37,578 bases of DNA from a virus. Of the stretch, positions 2,326 through 37,578 are shown piece by piece. Location of the stretch: the IMG/VR virus record IMGVR_UViG_3300028895_000250, one strand, 5' to 3'. Both the position numbers and the translations under genes were made by a program. The notes under the pieces are model-generated. The model was not told the DNA's origin, did not search any database, and saw only the letters and a list, made by a program, of their open reading frames with translations. The first letter of the stretch is position 1, and each line of letters starts with the position of its first letter.

Positions 2326-3847
2326 TTTCCGCAACTGGAAACACATGATCGGCCCGTACTCCGACAACCACCGGGATATTGTCTGCATGAAGGACACTCA
2401 GAGCGGGTGGACTCTGCGGATGCTCGCTGAAGTATGGTTCCGCTGCGCCAATGGCTGGTCTGTCTTCTACGTTCTGCCTACACAGACAATCAGGAATACA
2501 TTCGTCAAAAACCGTGTCGATACCGGGCGTGACATGGTGCCGTACTACGGCCATTTAATCGACAATGCCGCTGGCCATTCCGATGAAGTCGGCATGAAGC
2601 ATATTGGCTCCGGCGTGGTTAAATTCGTCGGGTCAAATGCCTTCTCCGAGTTCGGCGAATTCCCGGCTGATATGCTGGTCATCGATGAGTATGACCGTTG
2701 CGATCAGGAAAACTTGCCCTTTGCCTACGACCGCCTCGATGCCTCCGATCACAAATGCACCCGCATCCTGGGTAACCCGACCATCGAGGGTACGGGGATT
2801 CATCCGATATTTGATGCCTCCGATCAGCGATACTGGACAATCCCCTGCCCTCACTGCGGCGAATGGCAGGCGCTGGATTGGTTCAAGAACGTCGTCCGGG
2901 AAACCGGAGACAAAACCTATGAGCTGATCGATCAAGAATGGAAGCCTGATTCCTCCGAAGATATTAGGCTACACTGCGTAAGGTGCAACAAACCAATGGA
3001 CCGTCTTGCGGTCGGGGAATGGACCCCGACCTACCCCGACCGTTCGGTCCACGGTTACCACTTCAACAAGCTGGCTTTCCACAAAGCGACTATCGCCGAG
3101 CTGTGGGATCTGTGGTGCAAGGCGCAGGGCAACGAACACCGACTGCAAAACTTCTACAACTCGAAGCTGGGTATTCCCTACTCGTCGGCCTCGACCGGCC
3201 TGTCGCGGGCAATGCTGGACGCCCTGATACAAGATTACGTCATGCCGTCGAGGTCGGACGGACCGTGTTTCGCCGGTATCGATGTCGGCAACCAACTGCA
3301 TATCAGGATCGACGAGAAACGGGACGGCAAGTATCGGGCGGTATACATCGGCACCGTCAACACGTTTGAGGAAGCCGATCTAATCGTCAACACCTTCAAC
3401 GTCTCGACCGGCGTTATCGATGCTCGGCCAGAGACCAGGGCAGCTCGTCAGTTCATCGAACGGCAAAAGGGAACGTGGCTGCTATGTCAGTACGTGGCCA
3501 CCGACAAGGTGAGTTCAAAGTATTCCGATCTGGCTGATTTCTGGATGGAGATCAAATACGACCAGGGCGTGGTCAATACCGACCGGACCCAGAGCATGGA
3601 CGCCAGTCATGCCCGGCTGGTCAAGGGTGAAGTCGAGCTACCGAAAGGCACCGAGTCGATCCCGGATTTCTATGACCAGATGATATATCCGAAACGCCTA
3701 TTCGACGAAAAGCGTGGCCTGTACTACTGGTCTGGCGGTCTCGGCCACACCGAGCAAAAGAAGCCGGACCATTATCGCCATGCTGAGAATTACAAAAACA
3801 TTGCGGCACGGATCGAGGCTATGGGCGGAGGGCTGTTTCTCGTATGA
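2141..3847 (+). CDS. terL: Terminase large subunit, lambda GpA-like family (start uncertain, 2141 to 2345)
   Basis: N-terminal WAKKY motif. Walker A-like MKDTQSGWT and Walker B MLVIDEYD. Zn-ribbon CPHCGEW...CVRCNK. The conserved N-terminal motif lies upstream of ATG 2345, so the gene must overlap the terS 3' end. Confidence 0.88.
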   Translation: MTTTTKDTLRTNTRAILTSLELTPKSSAFWLKKCETELERRVTPLLWWAKKYHRTEANDPIDFRNWKHMIGPYSDNHRDIVCMKDTQSGWTLRMLAEVWFRCANGWSVFYVLPTQTIRNTFVKNRVDTGRDMVPYYGHLIDNAAGHSDEVGMKHIGSGVVKFVGSNAFSEFGEFPADMLVIDEYDRCDQENLPFAYDRLDASDHKCTRILGNPTIEGTGIHPIFDASDQRYWTIPCPHCGEWQALDWFKNVVRETGDKTYELIDQEWKPDSSEDIRLHCVRCNKPMDRLAVGEWTPTYPDRSVHGYHFNKLAFHKATIAELWDLWCKAQGNEHRLQNFYNSKLGIPYSSASTGLSRAMLDALIQDYVMPSRSDGPCFAGIDVGNQLHIRIDEKRDGKYRAVYIGTVNTFEEADLIVNTFNVSTGVIDARPETRAARQFIERQKGTWLLCQYVATDKVSSKYSDLADFWMEIKYDQGVVNTDRTQSMDASHARLVKGEVELPKGTESIPDFYDQMIYPKRLFDEKRGLYYWSGGLGHTEQKKPDHYRHAENYKNIAARIEAMGGGLFLV

Positions 3848-16426: not shown

Positions 16427-18882
16427 TGCTATCGACAGTGCCTTCATATAGCGAATTTGCCCGCCGCACAGCCGGCGAATGGGCATTTATAGTGACCCTG
16501 ACTGTCGATGGCACAGTCTACACTATGTCTGACCGTGCCCTGTCCAAAGACTTACCCTTTCCCGTTCTAGATTTATTGCGCGGCGATACAACAGTGTCCG
16601 AAGCAGTTGACATCTATGACCGCACCTGGGCCGCGCCGGAGGCTACTATATCAATCAACAACTCGCCGTTTTTCAGGTCATCGGAATCGTCCGACGAAGG
16701 GATGCTGTTACGCCCGTCGGATAAATTCGGCGATATCGAAGGCTGTGCGCTGACGATCAGTTTATGGCTTGGGCCGGTTGGCGGCTGGAATCTCATGATC
16801 TTCAACGGCACGGTCAGCGAGACGCCGGATATCACCGCTGAGTCGATAACCGTTGTGGCTACGGCAGAGGTTGCAGAGATCAATACCCGGATACCGCAGA
16901 CTATAATCACCCGTGACGATTATCCGAATGCGCCGGAGGAGTCAGTCGGTCGAGCGATCCCCCGGCCATACGGTGTTTTTTCAGAAGAACAGTTCCTCAA
17001 TCATGGTGGACTTGTCCCTTGCGAGCGTGTCAGCGAAAACCGCTGGCAGATATGCGCTGATTCAAATACGATCAAAAGCATTGACGCCGTGTGGGTTTAT
17101 TCCGAAGGCCTGGGAATGTGGGTCAAGCTGTACGATACGTCCGAATATAATGCCAGCGTATACTACGGCTATGTACAGCTGGATTATTTCCGCCCCAAAG
17201 CATATGCGTATATCTATCCTGATATCATTTACCCAGATGACGACTATGGTCTGCAGGTAGCCAGTAGTATAAATGACGGTCGTGGGTTGTATGTGACGCC
17301 TAACGGGTATCAGACATATTACCCAATAGTAACAGTATCATCGACTAAACTCTTTTATGGCAGCACTGCAAACACGAGTCAAATTTTATTGGTTTGGTCA
17401 AAGACATACGAAAAAGACGAAGACACGGCACTCAAAGGAACTAATATTGGCTGGGTCGTTCCTCAAGATGTTGGTGTTAGCGATGAAGACAAAGTAGCCT
17501 TTGAATATCAATTTATTCTCGATAGCAGTTATGTTGCCAAAGTGTATGCTGGTGGAACTGATCGGATGATCAAATTCTCTTGCGCCTATGACGTCACAGA
17601 CAGTACGCCGCACTGGTGCGGTCGCGATATCAATGTCGATGTTACCCGTACAACCGATTGGATACGCGAATATTTAGACGAAAATGTGATGACGTACAAG
17701 TGGGACGAGAAAATAAAATTACATTTTGGCGATGGTAATGTATCCGAGTCTGCATACCCTAATCCGATTGCGATGCTGTTCGGATACAGAATAAACGAAA
17801 CTCTCGCCACTGGTACTGAGACTGGTCGATTGTATGAAGCTCGACTACGAGTACCGTTCCGGGTGAGGCTCGGGCCAGTACGGGCTCAGCCTGCCCCTGG
17901 GGTGAAAATACGAAATAGATTTCTCGATGTAGAAAAGCAGGACATCCGCATGGCTGTCGAGGTCAGCGGGATTAGGTATTCAAGTTCAATCATCGGCAGC
18001 GGGCGCAAGAATTACAACAACTACTCAACCAGCGATACCAATATCTCCGCGCCGTTTATTATCGAAGATATCCTGCGTGATGTTGGTGTTCCTAACATCG
18101 ACACAAGCTCCTTCGATGAAGCGGACAAGCATCTACCGGTTCTCAGTAGCACATCGCCTTATGTGTTTAGCACTCATGTTCTCGTAGCCCACGACAGCGT
18201 AGTCAAAGACGATCAGGACAGTCGTCCGACGGCAAAGGATATGATCGTTGACATCCTGCGCCAGACACCCTATGCGATGACGGTCAACGCCCTGGGGCGA
18301 CCGCGAATGTTGGACATGACCGGCGATCCGCAGATGACCGTACCTTCACCGGCGACGGAGATCCCCCTGGCCGATATCGACCTGAACACTTTCAACATCG
18401 GACGGACCCGGATTGATTTGGTAAAAAATAAGATTATCGTCGAGTATATGCGGCGACCGCACGACGGACAGTTATCGTTCTACGACATCAAGGAAGACAC
18501 CGACAGTCAGGATGAATACGATATCAGAGAAGAACACCTCCGCTGTGACTATCTCGGCGGCAGCGGATCACCGACGGTTGACTACCTGACGGCCTACTAT
18601 TACAGAAACTGGCTGACCGACAAAGCGAACCTCGGCGGATATAACGGGTACTTCCTGTCTCGCCCCAAATGTATGGTTGAGTTTTTCTCGCCGGGTATGA
18701 AGTGGATGCACCTTGAACTCGGCGATTATATAGTTTTTGAAAGTGAATTGGATAAGCACTTCAAACTATTCGGCGCGTCATGGAAGTCATGGCCGCCCCG
18801 GATGTTCATGATCTACAAAATTGTGAAAACAGTATCCGGCGTCAGGATGTCGGCGATAGAGCCGCTGGCCCCGGAGAGTTAA
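16426..18882 (+). CDS. Tail tip/baseplate hub protein (818 aa)
   Basis: Call rests on position and size. TGATG coupling. Contains an AT-rich internal patch at ~17150..18200. Confidence 0.6.
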   Translation: MLSTVPSYSEFARRTAGEWAFIVTLTVDGTVYTMSDRALSKDLPFPVLDLLRGDTTVSEAVDIYDRTWAAPEATISINNSPFFRSSESSDEGMLLRPSDKFGDIEGCALTISLWLGPVGGWNLMIFNGTVSETPDITAESITVVATAEVAEINTRIPQTIITRDDYPNAPEESVGRAIPRPYGVFSEEQFLNHGGLVPCERVSENRWQICADSNTIKSIDAVWVYSEGLGMWVKLYDTSEYNASVYYGYVQLDYFRPKAYAYIYPDIIYPDDDYGLQVASSINDGRGLYVTPNGYQTYYPIVTVSSTKLFYGSTANTSQILLVWSKTYEKDEDTALKGTNIGWVVPQDVGVSDEDKVAFEYQFILDSSYVAKVYAGGTDRMIKFSCAYDVTDSTPHWCGRDINVDVTRTTDWIREYLDENVMTYKWDEKIKLHFGDGNVSESAYPNPIAMLFGYRINETLATGTETGRLYEARLRVPFRVRLGPVRAQPAPGVKIRNRFLDVEKQDIRMAVEVSGIRYSSSIIGSGRKNYNNYSTSDTNISAPFIIEDILRDVGVPNIDTSSFDEADKHLPVLSSTSPYVFSTHVLVAHDSVVKDDQDSRPTAKDMIVDILRQTPYAMTVNALGRPRMLDMTGDPQMTVPSPATEIPLADIDLNTFNIGRTRIDLVKNKIIVEYMRRPHDGQLSFYDIKEDTDSQDEYDIREEHLRCDYLGGSGSPTVDYLTAYYYRNWLTDKANLGGYNGYFLSRPKCMVEFFSPGMKWMHLELGDYIVFESELDKHFKLFGASWKSWPPRMFMIYKIVKTVSGVRMSAIEPLAPES

Positions 18883-18902
18883 GCCGCGAGAGAGGAACGG
18901 AA

Positions 18903-19250
18903 ATGGCAGCGAAGAATGGAAACAAGACGATCATCTCGATCTTGATACCTGTCGTCGTCGTCCTGATTGGCGGCGTATTTGGCATGGCGCAATACCAGAC
19001 ATCGACTACTCGCAAACAAATCGATACGGTAAAAACGGATCACGCAAAGGCCATTGATTGTAACAAGGCAGACATCAAAGAGGTTAAATCGGATGTCGTC
19101 GATCTAAAACTTGGGCAAGTTCAGACCAACGCCAAACTTGATGCCCTCGACGAAAAGATAGACATCCTTCTCCGGGCCAACGGTGTGCCCGATCATATGA
19201 TACCCAAAGCACGGACGGATACGGTTAATCATGAAAACGATACTACTTAA
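18903..19250 (+). CDS. Small membrane-anchored coiled-coil protein (115 aa)
   Basis: ATG lies after GAGAGGAACGG. TM segment IISILIPVVVVLIGGVFGMA, then a heptad-like region (DVVDLKLGQVQTNAKLDALDEKIDILL). The 18780 start in the track was rejected. Confidence 0.55.
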   Translation: MAAKNGNKTIISILIPVVVVLIGGVFGMAQYQTSTTRKQIDTVKTDHAKAIDCNKADIKEVKSDVVDLKLGQVQTNAKLDALDEKIDILLRANGVPDHMIPKARTDTVNHENDTT

Positions 19251-19824
19251 AATATTGGCGGTGGTGTTGCTGGCGTCTATGGCCTATGCCGGAACATACG
19301 GCGGCACTGGCGTTGAATCTACAAATTGGGGTATTGAGGATTATTGGTTCGGTGGATTTTATTTGTTTGACGGATCAACTGACACGCAAGCGGATTCTGT
19401 TGGTTGCTATCTTCGAGTAAGTGACAACCACAGTTTTAGAGCGGCATTAGTAAAGCGTTCGTCCGGTATCAATTTTGAGCTTGTTGATTCTACTGCGGAG
19501 CATGAGTTGAGTGCAGACACGGGGTGGTGTAGCTTTGCTCTGCTAAATAGTGTAACACTTGATTCTGGGACATATTACGGGATTATTTTGTGGAGTAGCG
19601 CAGACGACGACGGAGATATTTATGCCGTGTATTCTGCCTCGGGTAGCGATTCGTTGTTTTATAGAGCGTCTATCGAGTACGAATATGGTGACACTCTTCG
19701 TCCCTGGACTATGTATTTACCGACATTTTTGTCCGTTCCGGCGGCGTTATATGATGTTTCAAGTTATTTTGTAACATCCGAACCATCATCAGGTAGTAAG
19801 CGCAAGCGCGCACATCATCGATAA
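19231..19824 (+). CDS. Secreted protein with Sec signal peptide (197 aa), in the tail module
   Basis: N-terminus MKTILLKILAVVLLASMAYA|G. Lies in the low-GC island. Confidence 0.55.
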   Translation: MKTILLKILAVVLLASMAYAGTYGGTGVESTNWGIEDYWFGGFYLFDGSTDTQADSVGCYLRVSDNHSFRAALVKRSSGINFELVDSTAEHELSADTGWCSFALLNSVTLDSGTYYGIILWSSADDDGDIYAVYSASGSDSLFYRASIEYEYGDTLRPWTMYLPTFLSVPAALYDVSSYFVTSEPSSGSKRKRAHHR

Positions 19825-19840
19825 TTGGGGGCAGTACATA

Positions 19841-22800
19841 ATGGAAAAGAAATTGGGTAAAATAGTTGTTGGCTTGATCGGGGTTATTGCCCTCATCTGG
19901 GTTGTCACGTTTATGGCAGCAGAGTGTCGGGCTGACTTTCTCGGTGTGTACAGTTTGACGGAGTACATTATTGCCCCGGTTCATTCAATTGACAGTGATG
20001 GTAACGAGGTTGATGCTGATTCTGCTCATGTCCTTGTGTGGGAAGAAGGCGTTGGAGACAATACTGTTACTTATTCTGCGCGAACTTCAGATATGACCGC
20101 TGATTGGATTGCTGAATATACTTATGCCGGTGGAGTGAAGGATTATTATTTCCGGGATCAAGCACAGGATATTGATGCTGGGCAATTGCATGGCCAATAT
20201 GTAATGAAAATCAAGTTGTTTGCCGGTGGCGAAGGTTATTCCACCATCCATACTTTTGATGTTACTTCCACGGGTGAACGTGAAGTTGATGTCAATTCAA
20301 TGAGTACCAGTACTAATGCAGCCGATAGTCTTGAATTACGTATGTTACGACATGATCAAGATGATATTACCGACAAACTTGCTGCGATGGGCTTGGCTGA
20401 TTCCGCTGCAGCTATTTGGGGTGATACTGCCGATTCCCCCGGTGAGCGTGAGCGCTTGTTGATTGATGGCGGTGACGCGGCGGATCTTGAGGCCAAAGTA
20501 GACACTGCCGTTTGGGAATCTCGTACCGTTTATAACGAGGTGACGGTAGAAGATTGGGCCAACCATTTTTATCAGTATGATGATGGTGTGTTGTTTGATG
20601 GGTGTGAAGGCATTAGTGGTTGGACTTTTGAGCATGGTGGTAATGGTAGACTAACTGGTGAAGCTACACATACAACTCAGGGTGATTCTGCGATAAGTAT
20701 TTGGACTGGTGACGGAGATACGGCAATTGTTTACAAGGAATTGCTCACGTATGACAATGGTAGATATCGTATTCCGTACATATCAACTATTACATTTGAT
20801 CTCTTTATTGACACGGCAACATGTTATCGTTCCCATAGAGTTGCCGCGTATGCGGATAGTACATCTTCGCTGCATTACCTCAAGGTTAAAATGTGCCGGG
20901 ATTTAGAGGACGGGCCATTTGATATTACCACGAGCGGTTTTTTGCAATACATCTATCTCGATCAAGCCCTTGTCTCCGGCTGGAACCATTTAATTGTCCC
21001 CATGCAGGGGATGGCTGAGATTGGCGATGCCGATTCTAGTGATGTTGGCTTACAAAACAAGTATATCGGTTTTGAAATTGGGGTTGATGGTGCAAACGAT
21101 TCTGTCCGTGTTGTGATTGATAATATTCGCTTTAACGTACGTTCACGCGCCAAACTGATCTTTCGTTACGATGATGGGTTGCAATCGCAATATACACGAG
21201 GATGGCCGTTACATCGTAAATATCACCAACACGCTACATATGCAGTCAGGGGAAATAATTTTACCGGCGTTGATTCCAATATATACATGCTGACAAATCA
21301 TTTAGATGTATTGTATGCAGAGGGCAACGATATTATCAATCACGGGTACACCGGATTGTATTTGTACGACGTTACAGACTCCACGGCACGGAGAAATATT
21401 GACCAGGGACAGCAAGCGTTGAACGACCACGGGTATCAGCGAGCATCAGATGTGTTTGCGTACCCCAGCAACGGTATTGACACTATTGGACTGAGGATAT
21501 TAAAGGAAAATCATAAATTCGCTTGTGGTGGCCGTAACTCGATCCATCATGGCCATGTTGATGTGATTACAGATCCAACCGCAGACGAATTATACAATTT
21601 CCCTTACGTGTACATGGAATATAGTGGATCGGAAAGCATGGACAAGTACCGTCGCATGGTTGACACCGCAATCTTACAGGGCAGTTTGTTAATCTTATCA
21701 ATGCACGAAATATGTAGTACGGATAGTGCAAATGGCTCTGACGCTACTTCCATATCTACAAATGTTGATTCACTTGATGCTTTTCTTAGTTATGTGTACG
21801 ACCGCAGGGCATTAATTGACGTTACTACCTTCTCTGAATACTTTGCTCATCAGCGTACATTCTCGGCGCAGCTAAACACGATTGAGAATAATACAGATTT
21901 GGCGAACGATTCGCTTGAGGTGCTGAATGAAAAAATAGATGCGATGCGAGATAGCCTACAGTATTTGGTGACGGGCGGCGGGGATTCAAATTCCACCACC
22001 GGCATCACCTACGCCGTCGAGCAAGCGGCGATCAATCTCGATAATGCATCCGGCACATTATCCAATGCACAAATTGACGATGATATCGAAGTTGATGTCA
22101 AGACCTGGGCCGGTACTCCGGCAGCAACAGCCGATGACGGATGGGTGACGGCAGTCGGTTTCAGTACACACAGTGCAGGGGATATATGGACGGTGGGTAC
22201 GCGAAGGCTGACCGAGCTGGATGAGGACAATACAACTATCGATCTTGACGGTTCGGCGGTCGGGTCTGTTTCAGGGAATGTAGACGGCAATGTCGCCGGA
22301 TCGGTCGGCTCAGTCACGGCAGGGGTAACTTTACGTGGCGATTCGTTGGGTACGTTAATGGGAGACGTTGATGATATTAAATCCAAAACCGACAATTTAC
22401 CCACCGATCCCGCTGACGATTCAGATATAGATGGTCAACTCGCAGCGATTCAGGCAGACCTTGATAATCCCAATCAGTATAAAGCCACAGGATTTTCAAC
22501 GCATGGCCCCGGCGATCCGTGGGATGTAGCAACCAGTGACCATACGACAATAGGCACGTTTGCGGAATTGTTGGAAGCTGACTCGACAAATATCGCAGCC
22601 ATTAAAGAGCGCACCGACAACCTGCCAGATGATCCCGCAGACGACAGCGATATAGATGGACAGCTTTCCGCGATTAATGCAAAGACGACGAATCTACCAA
22701 GTGACCCGGCGGATGACAGTGATATCGACGGACAACTGGCAACAATTCAAGCAGACCTCGATAATCCAAGTCAGTACATGGCAACCGGCTTCTCCACGTT

Positions 22801-23785
22801 CGACCCGGATGCTGATACCGTTGGTCTCGGTACTGGAACGTATACTGCGATTGCTAAAGAATCATCGTTATTCGATCCTGATGCAGACACTGTCGGCCTG
22901 GGGTCGGGAACATACGCAGCGCTGGTTGCCGGATCGTCGTCATGGGCGGACACGCTGCGGAATATTATGGAGGCGATATTCGACACCACGCTTAGTATAG
23001 CCCCGGATTCAACTGGCGGACTATTCGAGCGCCTCACCTGGATTGCTGAAAACATGGCATCAGCCGGTGCCGATTCAGGCACTATCCATCGGATTCTTGA
23101 GGATGAATTGAACGTCGCCCGCGATGCAACCAAATCAGATTACCAATCGACCACCGGTCCCGGCGCGATTCCGGTCCGGGTCTATGCCTACGATTCAACG
23201 AATGCGGTATCTGTTGCCGGGGTGCGGATCAACGTCAAGTTGGCTGACGGTACGCCGAAACATTATGATCTGACCGGCTCCGACGGCTGGGCAAATATGA
23301 CGCTGGCTGTCGGTGAACGGTACATCTATGCCGAGCATAACAACTACGACTTCACCACTCCGGCCTGTACGCTGACCGTGCCGACGGATAGTCTGCGAGA
23401 TACCGTCTATGCAACCGCCTTCGATCCCGGCGATCCCGGCGACGCCGACCTGAAACGAATCTACGGCTGGATCAAAAACGCGGGCGACGTAGCCCTCGAA
23501 GGTGCCATCGTTACGCTGACGCTGGACGTTCCCGGTGACACGATACCATACCAGACCGGTACCGGTGTAACAATTCACCGAACGGCGGTCCGAGACACGA
23601 CCGATGCCGACGGCTACTGGTCGCTGGACATCTACCCGGTCCTGAACGGTGACGGCACGGCGTTTATCACACCGGCGAGTAGCGAGTACCACTATCGGGC
23701 GACGTACGATAACAACTATCTCAGCCAGCACCAGAAAACATTCAGGCCGTCGGATACTACTGCGACGGCGATAACGAGCTTCTGA
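19841..23785 (+). CDS. Large tail fibre / receptor-binding protein with N-terminal hydrophobic anchor, CE4 polysaccharide deacetylase-like domain, repeat region and two prealbumin-like C-terminal domains
   Basis: N-terminal segment IVVGLIGVIALIWVVTFMAA. NodB-like motifs FRYDDG (21161..21178), INHGYTG, AYPSNG and LILSMHE. Repeats carry NLP.DPADDSDIDGQL. C-terminal domains include VRINVKLADGTP...TGSDGWANM and AIVTLTL...TDADGYWSL. Confidence 0.7.
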   Translation: MEKKLGKIVVGLIGVIALIWVVTFMAAECRADFLGVYSLTEYIIAPVHSIDSDGNEVDADSAHVLVWEEGVGDNTVTYSARTSDMTADWIAEYTYAGGVKDYYFRDQAQDIDAGQLHGQYVMKIKLFAGGEGYSTIHTFDVTSTGEREVDVNSMSTSTNAADSLELRMLRHDQDDITDKLAAMGLADSAAAIWGDTADSPGERERLLIDGGDAADLEAKVDTAVWESRTVYNEVTVEDWANHFYQYDDGVLFDGCEGISGWTFEHGGNGRLTGEATHTTQGDSAISIWTGDGDTAIVYKELLTYDNGRYRIPYISTITFDLFIDTATCYRSHRVAAYADSTSSLHYLKVKMCRDLEDGPFDITTSGFLQYIYLDQALVSGWNHLIVPMQGMAEIGDADSSDVGLQNKYIGFEIGVDGANDSVRVVIDNIRFNVRSRAKLIFRYDDGLQSQYTRGWPLHRKYHQHATYAVRGNNFTGVDSNIYMLTNHLDVLYAEGNDIINHGYTGLYLYDVTDSTARRNIDQGQQALNDHGYQRASDVFAYPSNGIDTIGLRILKENHKFACGGRNSIHHGHVDVITDPTADELYNFPYVYMEYSGSESMDKYRRMVDTAILQGSLLILSMHEICSTDSANGSDATSISTNVDSLDAFLSYVYDRRALIDVTTFSEYFAHQRTFSAQLNTIENNTDLANDSLEVLNEKIDAMRDSLQYLVTGGGDSNSTTGITYAVEQAAINLDNASGTLSNAQIDDDIEVDVKTWAGTPAATADDGWVTAVGFSTHSAGDIWTVGTRRLTELDEDNTTIDLDGSAVGSVSGNVDGNVAGSVGSVTAGVTLRGDSLGTLMGDVDDIKSKTDNLPTDPADDSDIDGQLAAIQADLDNPNQYKATGFSTHGPGDPWDVATSDHTTIGTFAELLEADSTNIAAIKERTDNLPDDPADDSDIDGQLSAINAKTTNLPSDPADDSDIDGQLATIQADLDNPSQYMATGFSTFDPDADTVGLGTGTYTAIAKESSLFDPDADTVGLGSGTYAALVAGSSSWADTLRNIMEAIFDTTLSIAPDSTGGLFERLTWIAENMASAGADSGTIHRILEDELNVARDATKSDYQSTTGPGAIPVRVYAYDSTNAVSVAGVRINVKLADGTPKHYDLTGSDGWANMTLAVGERYIYAEHNNYDFTTPACTLTVPTDSLRDTVYATAFDPGDPGDADLKRIYGWIKNAGDVALEGAIVTLTLDVPGDTIPYQTGTGVTIHRTAVRDTTDADGYWSLDIYPVLNGDGTAFITPASSEYHYRATYDNNYLSQHQKTFRPSDTTATAITSF

Positions 23786-23786
23786 T

Positions 23787-24209
23787 ATGTGGACACAGAC
23801 AGACATTTTTGTAGCGACGCTCCGGCGCTTTCACGGCGTGAAGTATGTTTACGGCGGCGGCCATTGGGGTAAGCCCTACCCGGAATGCGGTGGAGTTGAT
23901 TGTTCGGGGCATCCCCGGATTGCCCTGATCGATGCCGGAATACGAAAGCCGACCTGGGACAACAACTCTCAAGGGATGTACGTCGAGTTTGACAAATGCG
24001 ATCTGCCTGGGGTCGGTGTCTTTGCGTTCTGGGCCAGGCCAGGCAGCATGATTTCCCACGTCGAACCGATCATTGGCATGGCTGACGGTCGATGGGTGTG
24101 TCTTGGCGCTCGGCAGAGTATTGGGTCTGTCTGCTATACCCGGTTGAACGATCCACGACCGGGGGTTGAGTTATACGGACTTGCAATACCATTCACAGAG
24201 GGGGTCTAA
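23787..24209 (+). CDS. NlpC/P60-family peptidoglycan endopeptidase (endolysin)
   Basis: YVYGGG...GVDCSG (catalytic Cys) and a downstream ISHVEPIIG (His). Followed immediately by a holin-like ORF. Confidence 0.8.
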   Translation: MWTQTDIFVATLRRFHGVKYVYGGGHWGKPYPECGGVDCSGHPRIALIDAGIRKPTWDNNSQGMYVEFDKCDLPGVGVFAFWARPGSMISHVEPIIGMADGRWVCLGARQSIGSVCYTRLNDPRPGVELYGLAIPFTEGV

Positions 24210-24398
24210 ATGGACAAAGCGATCGGTCAAAAATCAACATGGTGGACGACCATGCTGATCATCATCTGCGCGTCGGTTCTTCTGTATTTCGACAAAATCG
24301 GCGCAGAAATATGGCTGGCTTCTACCGGTCTTGGTGGTGTCGGTTATATGTGGCGCGAGACTAAACGTGACACCAACAAAAACGGAGGTTCACAATGA
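24210..24398 (+). CDS. Holin-like protein (62 aa, two TM segments, charged C-terminus)
   Basis: TM segments WWTTMLIIICASVLLYF and IWLASTGLGGVGYMW, then RETKRDTNKNGG. Adjacent to the endolysin. Confidence 0.65.
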   Translation: MDKAIGQKSTWWTTMLIIICASVLLYFDKIGAEIWLASTGLGGVGYMWRETKRDTNKNGGSQ

Positions 24399-24928
24399 GA
24401 TCGAAATTGTTGATTGTATTATTGCTTCTGCTAATCCCGGTCATGGCTCAGGCGCAGTCGTTCCCGAATGTCATGGGCGGCGTAGGTATCGGCGGTGAGA
24501 TTCACGGTCCGAGCGAAGGCGCGGTATGGACAATGAAAGTTGGCGCGGTCAAAGTCCCGGCGCTGGTATTGCCGCGTGGCCTGAACGACTCGACTGCGGC
24601 GTTCTACGTTGCAGTACAACACGGCGATACGGACGGCGGTGCAACCGGCGGCATGGGCGGCAAATTGATGCTGGCGATAAGAACGCTGATTCCACAGACG
24701 ACGGTTATCGTAGGCGGCGGCTGGCTCGACGACATTGCCCTCCGCAAAGACCCGGACGCCGAAGAACCGCAACTGGAACCGGGCTACGTTATCGACTTCG
24801 GGCTGCATTTCAAATTAACAAAAAGTGGGCTGGGTAATCTGATTATCCACTCGACAGTTATGGATCGTGGTGCGTCCGACGATCTGTCCATCCACCTGTT
24901 CGCCCTATACTCGATTACTGCGGGGTAA
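24395..24928 (+). CDS. Secreted Gly-rich beta-rich protein (177 aa) in the lysis cassette
   Basis: ATGA coupling to the holin. Signal peptide MRSKLLIVLLLLLIPVMAQA|QS. Alternating hydrophobic pattern. No lipobox and no C-terminal TM, so it is not a recognisable spanin. Confidence 0.6.
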   Translation: MRSKLLIVLLLLLIPVMAQAQSFPNVMGGVGIGGEIHGPSEGAVWTMKVGAVKVPALVLPRGLNDSTAAFYVAVQHGDTDGGATGGMGGKLMLAIRTLIPQTTVIVGGGWLDDIALRKDPDAEEPQLEPGYVIDFGLHFKLTKSGLGNLIIHSTVMDRGASDDLSIHLFALYSITAG

Positions 24929-24930
24929 CC

Positions 24931-25743
24931 ATGCGGGCGCTCGTACTCTCAGGCGGCGGCGCGAAGGGTGCGTTCGAGGCCGGGGTTGTCCTTGAGCTGG
25001 CGAAGGCCGGGCGGGATTACGATCTGGTCGTCGGTGTATCGACCGGCGCGCTGTCGGCGTTGGTGCTTGGCCAGGATAGCAACTTTCTGACCGCAGCCAA
25101 ACGCCTGTGGGCGCATTATGAGGCCATCAAAGGCCCGAAGGATATCTACAAGTCGCGCTCGCTGTGGGGCAAACTCCGGGGCGGCCTGTACTCACTTAAG
25201 CCGTTGCGCAAAAAGATCGTGGCCGAGGTCGCCCGCGACGGTTTCAGCCGGACTACCCGCGTCGGTGTGGTGAATCTGGAAACCGGGGAATTCAAACTGG
25301 TCGGCCCGATGGATATCTGTTTCGTCGATTACGTGCTGGCGTCGTGCAGTTTCCCGCCATACTTCCCGCCGGTTAAGATTTGGGGCCGTCCGTACATGGA
25401 CGGAGGCCTCCGCAACATCGCCCCGGTTCAGGCAGCGATTGACGCTGGTGCCACGACAATCGATCTGGTGCTGGCCTCGCCGAGCAATTTGGATTCGTGG
25501 AAACCGTCGGGCTGGACCTGGGATATCGCCGGGCGGGCCGTTTCGATTGCCGTCAACGAGGTCTATCGCGGCGATCTGGCCAACGGACACCCGGTAGATG
25601 TCCAGAAATTTGAGCCGTTGCCGGATGAGTATCGGGAAATGTGGGGAGGGGAATTCATCGGCACGCTGGAATTCGATCCGACAAAAATCCAAAGCGCAAT
25701 GATATATGGGCAGGCGGTCGCCCAAAAGCTCCTGTCTCCGTAG
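24931..25743 (+). CDS. Patatin-like phospholipase (270 aa), no signal peptide
   Basis: GGGAKG oxyanion loop at aa 8-13, GVSTG nucleophile elbow (Ser37) and MDGGL catalytic Asp (Asp157). All three patatin hallmarks are intact. Confidence 0.85.
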   Translation: MRALVLSGGGAKGAFEAGVVLELAKAGRDYDLVVGVSTGALSALVLGQDSNFLTAAKRLWAHYEAIKGPKDIYKSRSLWGKLRGGLYSLKPLRKKIVAEVARDGFSRTTRVGVVNLETGEFKLVGPMDICFVDYVLASCSFPPYFPPVKIWGRPYMDGGLRNIAPVQAAIDAGATTIDLVLASPSNLDSWKPSGWTWDIAGRAVSIAVNEVYRGDLANGHPVDVQKFEPLPDEYREMWGGEFIGTLEFDPTKIQSAMIYGQAVAQKLLSP

Positions 25744-25771
25744 GGCGGGGGAGTTTTCACCCTCTCAAGGA

Positions 25772-25799
25772 CCCCGGCGGCGATGTCGTCGGGGTTTTT
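25772..25799 (+). terminator. Rho-independent terminator ending the long plus-strand (late) operon
   Basis: Stem CCCCGGCG / CGTCGGGG (one G-U pair), 7-nt loop, T5 run at 25795..25799. Confidence 0.75.
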
Positions 25800-25800
25800 G

Positions 25801-25995
25801 TTCTAATATGCGTTCTAATATAGCCGAAATATATTGGTGTAACGTGGTAAATATTGGTACAATTCTTACCCCGTTCTATTGTGGACATTTGCAGTATAAC
25901 TGGTTGTCGTGTATACGGATAAATTAAAAGCGGGTGATGGGAGTCGAACCCGATGTTTCCCGTGAAACACAATCACTTACGGCGCGTTCTAATAT
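25801..25995. other. Candidate attP region with arm-type direct repeats
   Basis: TTCTAATAT at 25801..25809, 25813..25821 and 25987..25995 (12-mer GCGTTCTAATAT at 25810 and 25984). ATATTGGT at 25831 and 25851. AT-rich, and flanks a tRNA-like core next to int. Confidence 0.6.
25929..25951 (-). other. tRNA 3'-end-like fragment (T-loop plus acceptor strand); candidate attP core
   Basis: Minus strand reads GGGTTCGACTCCCATCACCCGCT, which is GTTCGAnTCC-type T-loop followed by a 7-nt acceptor strand and a U discriminator. The upstream half does not complete a T stem or anticodon arm, so it is not a full tRNA. Confidence 0.55.
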
Positions 25996-27049
25996 TTGAT
26001 TGCCCGGGCAGCTTATTAATGGCTTTCTGAAGGTCGGATTGATCTAAATGGCTGTACTGCAATGTTGTTTCGTATCGCTTGTGTCGGGCCAGCTTTTGCA
26101 CTATCGGCAGCGACACACCCGCCCGCACCAGCCGTGTGCAGTAGGTATGGCGCAGGGTATGGATATTGGCACCGTCAATTCCAAATTTCCGATATAACGC
26201 GATTACGCGGCGATACCAGACCTCAGAGAAATACAGGGGATGATTGGTGCCTTTGTCGAAGATATATCGCCCAGCGCGTTCTAATGACCTCAGGACGGCA
26301 GATAATTGGGGTGCCAGCGGTATGGTTTCCGGTGTCCGGCCTTTGGGGGCAAAGCCGGTTTTGGCCGCGATAGTGATTGTCATCTGATCGAAGTTGATAT
26401 CAGACCATTCCAGGTGGATGATTTCCGCCCGGCGAAGTCCGGCCAGATAGCCGATCATGCAAAACTCGCGGTAGGGCGAAGGGAATTTGGTTTCGATGAT
26501 CTTGATTTCTTTTTCGGACAGGGCGCGGATCTGCGGCGTGGCGTTTTTCTTCGGCAGTTTCACTTTCGCCATCGGATTGCGATTGAGCCGACCCTCTTGT
26601 ACCTGCACATTCAGGAAATGGCGTAGCACTTCAAGGTATCGGCGCACGGTAGTTGCTGTACAGGATGAACCTTTCCAGCTTTTGAATTGGTTGATGGACG
26701 CAGGTGTCAGGTCTGATAGGCACAAAATCCCCCGGCTCACGAAATACTGCCGGAGAATTTCTACCCGGCTGTAGTTTGATTTGTGGGTGCTGGCTGTGTT
26801 TTCGGCCGCGGACCGTTTCAGGTAGTCGGTCAAAAGTGATGCCAGTTGACTATCATCTTTCGGCTTATCCTTTTTGTGGGCCTGCTTCCACTGATTAAAG
26901 TATTTGCGGGCTTCCTTTTGCGTGACGATCTTGCGGCCCAGGTCGGCATAGGCGGAAAGTGATATCCATTTATATTTTCCGTCGATATACTCCACGACAT
27001 AGGGATAGACCTTGCCGGCGCCTGTTTTCTTCCAGTGGAGGGATGCCAT
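25973..27049 (-). CDS. int: Tyrosine recombinase / phage integrase
   Basis: LAGLRRAEI (Arg box), HTLRHTYCTRLV (H-x-x-R), TTLQYSHL (catalytic Tyr). N-terminal SAM-like domain. Confidence 0.92.
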   Translation of the reverse strand: MASLHWKKTGAGKVYPYVVEYIDGKYKWISLSAYADLGRKIVTQKEARKYFNQWKQAHKKDKPKDDSQLASLLTDYLKRSAAENTASTHKSNYSRVEILRQYFVSRGILCLSDLTPASINQFKSWKGSSCTATTVRRYLEVLRHFLNVQVQEGRLNRNPMAKVKLPKKNATPQIRALSEKEIKIIETKFPSPYREFCMIGYLAGLRRAEIIHLEWSDINFDQMTITIAAKTGFAPKGRTPETIPLAPQLSAVLRSLERAGRYIFDKGTNHPLYFSEVWYRRVIALYRKFGIDGANIHTLRHTYCTRLVRAGVSLPIVQKLARHKRYETTLQYSHLDQSDLQKAINKLPGQSNIRTRRK

Positions 27050-27477
27050 TATTGTTGAATCGCGGTGATTTTTGCGCTGTCCGGCGGCATACCGGCCGGA
27101 CGCCAGGTATACACATACGATGTCTTTTTAAGGTATTCGCGGTATACCCATTGGACGCGAGTACCCTCCGCTGTTGTGGTTACGTTCGCTGTGCCTTCAA
27201 TAGGCGACGGCGCACCCCAAGAGCAGAACATTCCGAACGCGGTCATACCGACGGCGATTTTATTTTTTTCGATCAACTCCCATTCGTTTTCCGGTATTAC
27301 GCCCCGGCGTTCGAGCTCTGGTCTGATCTTATCTTTGCGGGTGTGGTGGTAGGCATAGCAGAGTTCGGCTGTCGGCAACGCCAGCAATTTTTCCTCAGAC
27401 ATTAATTTGTAATGGACGATTGATCCCGCACACCCGGCCAGCATGAACACCAACAATATCAATATGATTACTCGCAT
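27049..27477 (-). CDS. Lipoprotein (142 aa), translationally coupled to int; candidate lysogenic-conversion or superinfection-exclusion factor
   Basis: Lipobox MLAGC|AGS, AGGAGA RBS, and a stop that overlaps the int ATG (TAATG). Confidence 0.75.
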   Translation of the reverse strand: MRVIILILLVFMLAGCAGSIVHYKLMSEEKLLALPTAELCYAYHHTRKDKIRPELERRGVIPENEWELIEKNKIAVGMTAFGMFCSWGAPSPIEGTANVTTTAEGTRVQWVYREYLKKTSYVYTWRPAGMPPDSAKITAIQQ

Positions 27478-27681
27478 ATGATTCTCCTGTGATTATCATC
27501 TGATTGCTCTTGACAAGAATACCCCTATACTTATATTGGTTTTAATCTGTAACTTGAGGGGCGCACCACGCACGGACCACTACCCCCCCCTACCTGTTGG
27601 CCGGGCAACCAGGTTAAAACCCGACAAGCAACTGGAAGCTGATTTTCAAGATCGGGGTACGGCAGTATGGATGCCGACGAA

Positions 27682-37122: not shown

Positions 37123-37572
37123 ATGATTGAATTTTTCATCCCAGGTCCGCCGGTTGCACAACAGCGGGCGAAGACGAGAGTAGCCAAAGTTCCGGGCGGC
37201 GGCGTCCGGGTGCTCGGTAAGTATGACCCAGAGAAATGCAAGAACTTCAAAAGCCACGTGGCCGATGTTGCATTTCAGAAAGTCACCGAATGTTACGGGC
37301 CGGACGTACCCATCGCCCTGGACATGGTATTTTTCGTACAGCGACCGGCGTCAGTCACCATCAAGAAACGGCCACTGCCGATCAAAAAACCCGATTGGGA
37401 TAACTTCGGCAAGGGGCCGTCCGATGCAATGGAGACAATCGTCTACCATAACGACAGCCAGGTAGTCGATTGTCGAGTGAGAAAATTCTACGCCGATAAT
37501 CATCCGGTCGGCGCACTGTTGAAAATCGTAGAAGTCAAACCGCAGGAGGTACAAAATGAATTTTCGCTGTGA
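37123..37572 (+). CDS. rusA: RusA-family Holliday junction resolvase
   Basis: PPVAQQRAK...KPDWDNFGKGPSDAME...YHNDSQV is the RusA signature (KPDxDN...D). The gene spans the contig overlap. Confidence 0.85.
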   Translation: MIEFFIPGPPVAQQRAKTRVAKVPGGGVRVLGKYDPEKCKNFKSHVADVAFQKVTECYGPDVPIALDMVFFVQRPASVTIKKRPLPIKKPDWDNFGKGPSDAMETIVYHNDSQVVDCRVRKFYADNHPVGALLKIVEVKPQEVQNEFSL

Positions 37573-37578
37573 TCTGGA
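37435..37578. repeat. Terminal exact direct repeat, copy 2 (identical to 1..144)
   Basis: Compared base by base with 1..144. Confidence 0.97.

Follow-up and report, generated by a model that had tools for sequence, protein, structure and literature searches.

The lysis cassette and its transcription unit

The IMG/VR virus record IMGVR_UViG_3300028895_000250, a stretch of 37,578 nucleotides (nt) that was analysed at its full length and is called the window throughout, carries at positions 23787-25743 four closely packed genes for an endolysin, a holin-like membrane protein, a Sec-exported protein and a patatin-like phospholipase (Table 1). An initial annotation, made from the sequence alone, had read these genes as a coupled lysis cassette that lacks recognisable spanins and is followed directly by the operon terminator, and had proposed that the phospholipase, possibly aided by the exported protein, offers a lipid-hydrolysing route to membrane disruption. 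The open reading frames (ORFs), all on the plus strand, and the terminator were found exactly as described, and the view that this is a genuine lysis cassette is supported. The step at the outer membrane is here tentatively assigned to the exported protein, a predicted beta-barrel of a family that recurs in the spanin position of phage lysis cassettes, while the patatin would be a clade-specific accessory lysis enzyme similar in logic to mycobacteriophage LysB and not the core replacement for spanins; we put the probability of this assignment at about 0.45.

The four genes are translationally coupled: the endolysin ATG lies 1 nt past the stop codon of an upstream gene for a protein of 1314 amino acids (aa), the holin gene follows the endolysin gene at a distance of 0 nt, the barrel gene overlaps the holin gene by 4 nt (ATGA), and 2 nt separate the barrel and patatin genes. 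Within the cassette, a terminator scan returned no hairpin comparable in strength to the one behind the patatin gene, and no promoter signal rose above chance. Strong terminators also lie about 30 nt past the patatin stop in two related phages, L001 and L009, and each of the three phages closes the cassette with the patatin gene and a strong terminator. Gene spacing and terminators together suggest that all four genes are made late, on one transcript.

By sequence, the 140-aa protein is probably an NlpC/P60-type endolysin. The assignment draws on a match to Pfam NLPC_P60 that is below threshold (17.1 bits against a cut-off of 23, E 0.005), on the presence of the DCSG cysteine, C39, in all three full-length homologues together with an invariant H91, on a 76% identical homologue in L009 that carries a precomputed NLPC_P60 match, and on the occupation of the same slot in L001 by a Peptidase_M15 protein (Peptidase_M15_3). 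A sequence search of the PDB with the endolysin gave nothing useful, and hydropathy indicated no transmembrane segment. The 62-aa protein, which matched no curated family, has a strong transmembrane domain (TMD) at residues 11-27, a weaker glycine-rich hydrophobic stretch and a charged C-terminal tail. It has the descriptive features of a holin, being small, with at least one TMD and a charged C-terminus, and adjoining an endolysin that lacks a signal; homologous small transmembrane proteins are encoded in L013 (E 9e-8) and L097 (E 0.008), there too ahead of the barrel. On these descriptive features it is regarded as a putative holin.

Table 1. Features of the window and of related loci. Positions without a locus name are those of the window.
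Feature	Position	Strand	Remarks
Endolysin, 140 aa	23787-24209	+	Probable NlpC/P60-type cysteine peptidase; cytoplasmic, no signal or signal-anchor-release (SAR) segment
Holin-like membrane protein, 62 aa	24210-24398	+	Putative, from translation and hydropathy
Exported protein, 177 aa	24395-24928	+	Signal peptide; predicted 8-stranded outer-membrane beta-barrel
Patatin-like phospholipase, 270 aa	24931-25743	+	No signal; last gene of the late operon
Intrinsic terminator	25771-25799	+	Hairpin ACCCCGGCGG..CGUCGGGG followed by U5; closes the late operon
Probable attP core	25929-25951	-	Matches the 3' end of a tRNA-Gly (T-arm and acceptor) at all 23 nt
Integrase	25973-27049	-	Pfam match
Lipoprotein, 142 aa	27049-27477	-	Lipobox LAGC; coupled to the integrase gene, base 27049 common to both
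Transmembrane and coiled-coil protein, 115 aa	18903-19250	+	N-terminal TMD, coiled coil, one conserved Cys
Apparent protease-capsid fusion, 696 aa	6053-8143		One ORF; head-maturation protease families (residues ~18-250) and major head protein families
Terminators behind the patatin gene	L001 10848-10876; L009 3901-3924
67-69-aa protein	L001 9795-10004; L009 2858-3061		N-terminal TMD, short Cys-containing periplasmic tail, no family match
Transmembrane and coiled-coil homologue	L001 229-612
Recurrent His/Cys family, 170-200 aa	L097 3679-4287; L099 1933-2523; L101 1409-1999; L015 1-510		Adjoins the barrel gene
NlpC/P60 fragment, patatin, tRNA-Arg(CCT), integrase, in this order	L010 393-692 (fragment), 692-1570 (patatin), 2403-3524 (integrase)

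The exported protein and its family

The protein encoded by the third gene has a hydrophobic N-terminus ending in AQA, with a signal peptide at residues 1-20, and its mature form would comprise 157 aa. The initial annotation had called it an exported, glycine-rich and beta-rich protein; the export signal holds, and the description can be refined to a predicted outer-membrane barrel, a fold that the annotation had missed along with the position of the patatin gene next to attP and the transmembrane and coiled-coil ORF at 18903-19250. An AlphaFold2 (AF2) model, computed from a shallow input alignment of 9 sequences, reached a predicted local distance difference test score (pLDDT) of 81.7 and a predicted template-modelling score (pTM) of 0.74, and it shows eight long antiparallel strands of 10-15 residues after the signal helix. 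The best Foldseek matches to this model in the PDB were OprF-N, PagL, Ail, OmpX and OmpA, with target-normalised TM-scores (TMt) of 0.5-0.67, and the best matches among viral models were phage proteins annotated as outer-membrane beta-barrels. The model thus predicts an eight-stranded outer-membrane beta-barrel. The invariant residues of the family are of the Gly, Arg and Pro types; most are glycines within strands, and others cluster at one barrel rim. A PagL-like lipid A deacylase was considered and rejected, since neither a Ser nor a His is invariant in 11 members.

Matches to curated families were absent in Pfam, PHROG and NCBIfam alike, a word-based homologue search with the 177-aa protein found only the query itself, and a single-protein scan of viral contigs found nothing. 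An exhaustive HMMER search among 1.84 billion representative proteins recovered nine family members, that is the protein itself and eight relatives, and a profile search added eight more. The members are 160-200 aa long, begin with a signal peptide and share the motifs GGxxVG, GP, GGxGGK, GxGWLDxIA and DRG. Judged by these sequences, the barrel is the founding member of a small, previously undescribed phage family.

The family was recovered in ten distinct phage contexts, and in seven of these (the window, L001, L009, L013, L096, L097/98 and L099-102) an endolysin-type gene and a gene for a 60-70-aa membrane protein lie directly ahead of the barrel gene, whose start often overlaps the stop of the gene before it; in L013 the contig holds just the C-terminal end of the gene upstream. 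Where the endolysin-type genes can be assigned, they are of the NlpC/P60, Peptidase_M15 or lysozyme-like kind. Elsewhere the barrel gene is preceded by a multi-transmembrane protein (L012), by a transmembrane and coiled-coil protein (L014) or by a member of a recurrent family of 170-200-aa proteins with invariant His and Cys residues (L015), and in L096 and L012 a terminator directly follows the barrel gene, which is there the last late gene. The initial annotation had suggested surveying related phages for the pairing of exported protein and patatin against the absence of spanins. No lipoprotein ORF lies beside the barrel cassettes of the related loci, and the pair itself occurs in just three of the ten contexts, those of the window and the related phages L001 and L009.

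By position, then, the barrel family holds the slot that spanins normally fill in phages of Gram-negative hosts, and because it does so across cassettes a role at the outer-membrane step is suspected; this is strong guilt by association, and association only. The proposal that the patatin is the core substitute for spanins, or an obligate partner of the barrel, did not survive the comparison, given that the barrel follows the holin in other lineages without any patatin: lysis cassettes of this patatin-less kind occur in at least seven other phage lineages. It is because such cassettes exist that the core outer-membrane role is given to the barrel and an accessory one to the patatin.

The recurrent family that adjoins the barrel gene in several loci has one His and one Cys among its invariant residues (PGD..THxRxV..YD..VCSxG), and its 196-202-aa members from L015, L097 and L099 gave no significant match in Pfam, PHROG or the PDB. 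Its pattern appears to resemble that of the permuted NlpC/P60 (YiiX-like) enzymes. If these proteins act on lipids, they would form a parallel to the patatin.

The patatin-like phospholipase

The fourth gene was described in the initial annotation as a signal-less patatin with all catalytic hallmarks, and it is one. The protein matches Pfam PF01734 with 98.4 bits (cut-off 27.7) and an E value of 7.8e-28, over all of the 191 profile positions, and contains the oxyanion motif GGGAKG (G8-G9-G10..G13), the nucleophile S37 in GVSTG and D157 in DGG; G8-G10 and G13, G35-x-S37-x-G39 and D157-G158-G159 are invariant across ten relatives. Its AF2 model (pLDDT 84.9, pTM 0.86) was matched by Foldseek to PlpD (TMt 0.76) and to CapV (query-normalised TM-score, TMq, 0.72) at E values of about 1e-13, and a profile search of the PDB returned the same two proteins at 1e-17 and 3e-14, respectively. 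Hydropathy shows no N-terminal hydrophobic segment, and there is no signal peptide. The sequence predicts a catalytically intact enzyme with a Ser-Asp dyad and lipid acyl-hydrolase activity.

Pairwise comparison of the window, L001 and L009 gives 67-68% identity for the patatin throughout, which makes it the most evenly conserved gene of the cassette. In the same trio the endolysin is swapped, being NlpC/P60 in the window and L009 and M15 in L001; the holins are just 19-33% identical; and the barrels of L001 and L009 are 75% identical to each other and 29-30% identical to that of the window. Both L001 and L009 have an extra conserved gene between barrel and patatin that the window lacks, encoding a 67-69-aa transmembrane protein. 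In the 20.6 kb covered of L001, early genes follow the patatin and none of the 35 predicted genes encodes an integrase, so that the patatin is not tied to the att/int end of a genome. It is a late gene that has been stably kept as the last of the cassette, unlike a classical moron with its promoter-plus-terminator layout.

More distant relatives live elsewhere. Those next in similarity, at 55% identity in L010 and 47% in L011, are found in different settings, and the context in L011 is unrelated. In L010 the patatin gene comes directly after an NlpC/P60 fragment, a 99-aa C-terminal piece without the catalytic Cys region, and a tRNA- or tmRNA-like fragment occupies the place analogous to the attP of the window, in addition to the complete tRNA-Arg(CCT); the locus looks like a decayed or rearranged element that has retained the patatin. 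When the hidden Markov model (HMM) of the barrel family was run against 80 viral loci whose patatins are 27-40% identical to that of the window, it found no barrel besides that of L016, which lies on the same contig as L001. Since distant phage patatins stand away from lysis genes, the link with lysis is specific to the clade of the window, L001 and L009.

These neighbourhoods bear on the main rival explanation, a serious one, in which the patatin is late-operon cargo with no part in host lysis. The enzyme would then be a cytoplasmic toxin released by lysis, on the logic of Shiga toxin, that targets the membranes of eukaryotic grazers or competitors, or it would benefit lysogens in some other way, and holin, endolysin and barrel would lyse the cell alone. 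The attP candidate lies close behind the integrase stop, on the side of the patatin terminator, and after integration it would probably leave the patatin at the end of the prophage, beside attP and integrase in the classic position of cargo. Cassettes of the same barrel family that lack a patatin, the retention of the patatin beside a decayed endolysin and an integrase in L010, and the occurrence of other phage patatins in non-lysis contexts all suit this explanation, as does the company of the enzyme among solved structures, where its closest relatives include the secreted lipase PlpD and where the virulence effectors VipD and ExoU match too. Against cargo stands the lack of any promoter or terminator of its own, together with a start 2 nt past the upstream stop, both unlike classical morons; the L001 patatin sits at the same cassette end with no integrase nearby; and conservation of the patatin is more even than that of its neighbours, the bona fide lysis genes. 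We consider cargo possible rather than probable.

A second alternative, already raised in the initial annotation, would make the patatin an anti-phage or abortive-infection effector of the CapV type, which acts in the cyclic-oligonucleotide-based anti-phage signalling system (CBASS), or of a similar type, carried by the prophage to exclude other phages. The protein does match the phospholipase effector models of PADLOC (E 7e-13), and Foldseek finds it similar to CapV and CapE at TM-scores of about 0.7. Its score against the NCBIfam equivalog CBASS_lipase (NF041079), however, is 45.6 bits where the cut-off is 200, on which ground a CapV equivalog was rejected; it scores equally well or better against PlpD, which is not a defence enzyme, it is about 70 aa shorter than CapV, and its gene belongs to the late operon and has no independent promoter. 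A PADLOC scan of 50 window ORFs agreed with the earlier remark that no cyclase or sensor is present, in that it detected no CD-NTase, sensor or other CBASS partner. A defensive function is therefore very improbable. Besides the patatin, the scan gave a single, unrelated match, to mad1 of the MADS system (E 5.6e-9).

The search for spanins

The absence of a lipoprotein/transmembrane spanin pair and of a unimolecular spanin (u-spanin), as claimed in the initial annotation, was upheld by lipobox scans, strict over the whole 37.6 kb and relaxed over 18700-19900 and 23700-25800, which found neither an outer-membrane spanin subunit (o-spanin) nor a u-spanin. A conventional spanin elsewhere in the genome had been named as a finding that would speak against the patatin proposal; the whole-window lipobox scan revealed none. 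The single credible lipobox ORF in the 37.6 kb encodes the 142-aa lipoprotein beside the integrase, which lacks the C-terminal hydrophobic segment of a u-spanin of the T1 gp11 type and is excluded as an o-spanin by its position and size; it is a candidate for an exclusion or conversion protein expressed in lysogeny. Nested Rz1-like ORFs, as in LambdaSo, were absent in and near the cassette under relaxed rules.

A possible spanin component is the 115-aa protein encoded at 18903-19250, whose weak PHROG matches include an Rz-like spanin (E 0.001). It has a homologue in L001, the two proteins being 115-127 aa long with a conserved Cys, and the gene lies in the tail module of both phages, in a position that differs relative to an 800-aa gene. 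No lipobox ORF is nested in it and no lipoprotein partner was found for it. By architecture it resembles an inner-membrane spanin subunit (i-spanin), and it may belong to the lysis system.

This protein also figures in a third alternative, which concerns the barrel. The barrel might be a surface protein like Lom or Ail, serving exclusion, receptor masking or resistance to serum or grazing and merely riding at the end of the late operon, in which case the outer membrane would be broken by something unrecognised, such as the 18903-19250 protein and a partner, or the step would not be needed in the host. Many phages do carry small outer-membrane barrels of unknown or conversion function, the window and L001 both encode the transmembrane and coiled-coil protein with its conserved Cys, and in L014 a protein of this kind is encoded directly ahead of the barrel. 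What makes this explanation rather unlikely is the consistency with which the barrel gene comes right after holin or endolysin genes, with overlapping start and stop, in many unrelated cassettes and not near lysogeny genes, whereas both phages carry the transmembrane and coiled-coil gene inside the tail module and without a lipoprotein partner.

A model for lysis and the evidence against it

If the barrel carries out the outer-membrane step and the patatin assists it, lysis might proceed as follows. The four genes would be transcribed late, as a single transcript ending at the terminator at 25771-25799, and during the late period the 177-aa protein would be exported by Sec and would assemble as an eight-stranded barrel in the outer membrane, a localisation suggested by its predicted fold and signal. 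Once the holin triggers, the cytoplasmic endolysin and patatin would exit together through the holin lesions; we infer this joint exit because both proteins lack an export signal, and such holin-dependent release would be as in canonical holin-endolysin systems. The endolysin would then cut the peptidoglycan, and the outer membrane would be handled by the barrel protein, in this clade with the help of the patatin, which would deacylate phospholipids of the inner leaflet of the outer membrane and of the periplasmic face of the inner membrane, the resulting lysolipids and fatty acids destabilising the membranes.

Several observations weigh against this assignment. On the side of the barrel, the C-terminus (...LYSITAG) appears to lack the canonical aromatic beta-signal, some family members ending in F or L and others in KKK; the family has no invariant residues of catalytic type; and small outer-membrane barrels are common in phages and are usually regarded as conversion or exclusion proteins. 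On the side of the patatin, an active cytoplasmic phospholipase should be harmful before the holin triggers, and a mechanism of latency must be assumed. Seven of the ten barrel contexts contain no patatin, which is evidently dispensable for lysis. On 46 phage-sized viral contigs with patatin relatives, a peptidoglycan-hydrolase domain occurs in a single one of the 137 neighbours. Lysis genes do not adjoin phage patatins at 28-40% identity, and the 55% identical patatin of L010 shares its locus with a truncated piece of endolysin and an integrase but not with a holin or a barrel, as retained cargo would.

A bolder version of the model would make the barrel family a third class of phage protein for disrupting the outer membrane, after spanins and the disruptin, working in this clade with a holin-released patatin. 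The barrel might then be a beta-barrel counterpart of the o-spanin with a partner anchored in the inner membrane, for which the transmembrane and coiled-coil proteins of the window and L014 and the 67-69-aa transmembrane protein of L001 and L009 are candidates. We think this version quite unlikely; if true, it would be the first case of enzymatic, lipid-hydrolysing breakdown of the outer membrane in a phage of a Gram-negative-type host.

Genome, attachment site and host

The window ends in an exact 144-nt direct repeat (1-144 and 37435-37578) and therefore represents a complete circular genome of about 37.4 kb. Its gene order is the usual one for temperate tailed phages, of which this is an uncultivated member. 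The large terminase, the portal and what appears to be a fusion of protease and major capsid protein come first, followed by a long plus-strand block in the position of the tail module, mostly without family matches, and by the four cassette genes; after the cassette come the integrase and lipoprotein genes on the minus strand, a repressor-like gene and early recombination and replication genes.

Within the block ahead of the cassette, a 197-aa protein (19231-19824) and the 1314-aa fibre-like protein (19841-23785) both have hydrophobic N-termini like those of signal peptides, as does the 1691-aa homologue in L001, and such N-termini are unexpected in virion proteins, whose assembly takes place in the cytoplasm. 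A polysaccharide deacetylase domain (residues 440-553) and repeats of the motif DNLPxDPADDSDIDGQL also occur in the 1314-aa protein.

The cassette is no assembly accident, because the identical patatin was found on 20 contigs from several samples (several of them in ENA), the longest of about 37.3-37.5 kb, and in each of the seven loci fetched from among them the same four cassette genes precede the integrase. At the DNA level, blastn of positions 23000-27500 against 50,697 phage records found no relative, and tblastn with the patatin against phage records hit only seven, all at less than 60% identity.

That the host is a diderm (two-membrane) bacterium is suggested by the lipoprotein, the signal peptides and the predicted barrel. 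A scan of genome contigs for a host found no relatives of the patatin, and neither ARAGORN nor Rfam detected a complete tRNA in the window. The 25-nt tRNA-Gly 3' end that can be reconstructed around the attP candidate has exact matches in only two metagenome-assembled genomes, one from Gammaproteobacteria and one from Anaerolineales; these carry no evidence on the host, because two of the 25 bases were inferred.

Relation to known lysis systems and significance

We know of just one alternative to spanins, the disruptin peptide, that has been shown experimentally. In about 15% of the phages that infect Gram-negative hosts no spanin can be recognised (bioRxiv 10.1101/515445), and the disruptin, phiKT gp28, resembles the present case in being a non-spanin outer-membrane solution in a spanin-less phage; it is a 56-aa cationic amphipathic peptide, however, whereas the candidates here are a beta-barrel of 157 aa in its mature form and an enzyme (bioRxiv 10.1101/515445). 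The S-R-Rz/Rz1 genes of lambda share with the cassette its place in the late operon, a soluble cytoplasmic endolysin, a small holin and an envelope-targeted gene directly after them. They differ in that the window has neither a spanin pair nor a u-spanin, the third gene encoding instead a Sec-exported predicted beta-barrel and the fourth a lipid hydrolase. The barrel itself is like OmpX/Ail/Lom, the N-terminal domain of OmpA and PagL in predicted fold, size and signal peptide, but it belongs to none of these families, has no Ser/His of the PagL type, and stands apart in its glycine-rich strands and its fixed position after the holin.

A role of the patatin in lysis has precedents in logic in LysB, in the cassette hypothesis for Wolbachia phage WO and in colicin release. 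LysB is likewise a soluble lipolytic enzyme of a lysis cassette that is released with the endolysin and attacks an outer lipid layer (PMC5707550). It is, however, a cutinase-like alpha/beta hydrolase (a mycolyl-arabinogalactan esterase) that acts on a linkage of the mycomembrane and is not homologous to patatin, whereas the enzyme of the window has a patatin fold with a Ser-Asp dyad, its presumed substrates being the glycerophospholipids of a Gram-negative-type envelope. In phage WO, a patatin-like phospholipase adjoins a holin-like gene, and a patatin-based lytic cassette has already been proposed, without experimental test (PMC9203015); that patatin is proposed to replace a missing endolysin, in a host whose peptidoglycan, according to the paper, has never been detected (PMC9203015), whereas here the patatin is added to a complete endolysin-holin set and follows the gene for the outer-membrane barrel. 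An involvement of phospholipase in colicin release is credited to Pugsley and Schwartz (1984). With CapV and PlpD the patatin shares its fold and catalytic motifs, but the window offers no cyclase partner, the score is far below the CapV equivalog cut-off, and neither a POTRA domain nor a barrel translocator is fused to the enzyme in the manner of PlpD.

Full-text literature searches found no paper describing either a barrel in the spanin slot or a terminal patatin, besides the WO hypothesis. What is new here is thus the combination, in a phage lysis cassette, of a barrel family in the spanin slot and a clade-specific terminal patatin, and it supplies two clonable candidates for the outer-membrane step, one a barrel family of many uncultivated phages and the other a patatin at the cassette end of one clade. 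Should the patatin prove to be a lysis-released toxin instead, environmental phages would offer a new case of late-operon cargo like Shiga toxin. If either protein acts on the outer membrane, the lysis repertoire of phages would grow, spanin-less genomes could be better annotated, and new envelope-breaching proteins would become available for lysis engineering and for enzyme-based antibacterials against Gram-negative bacteria.

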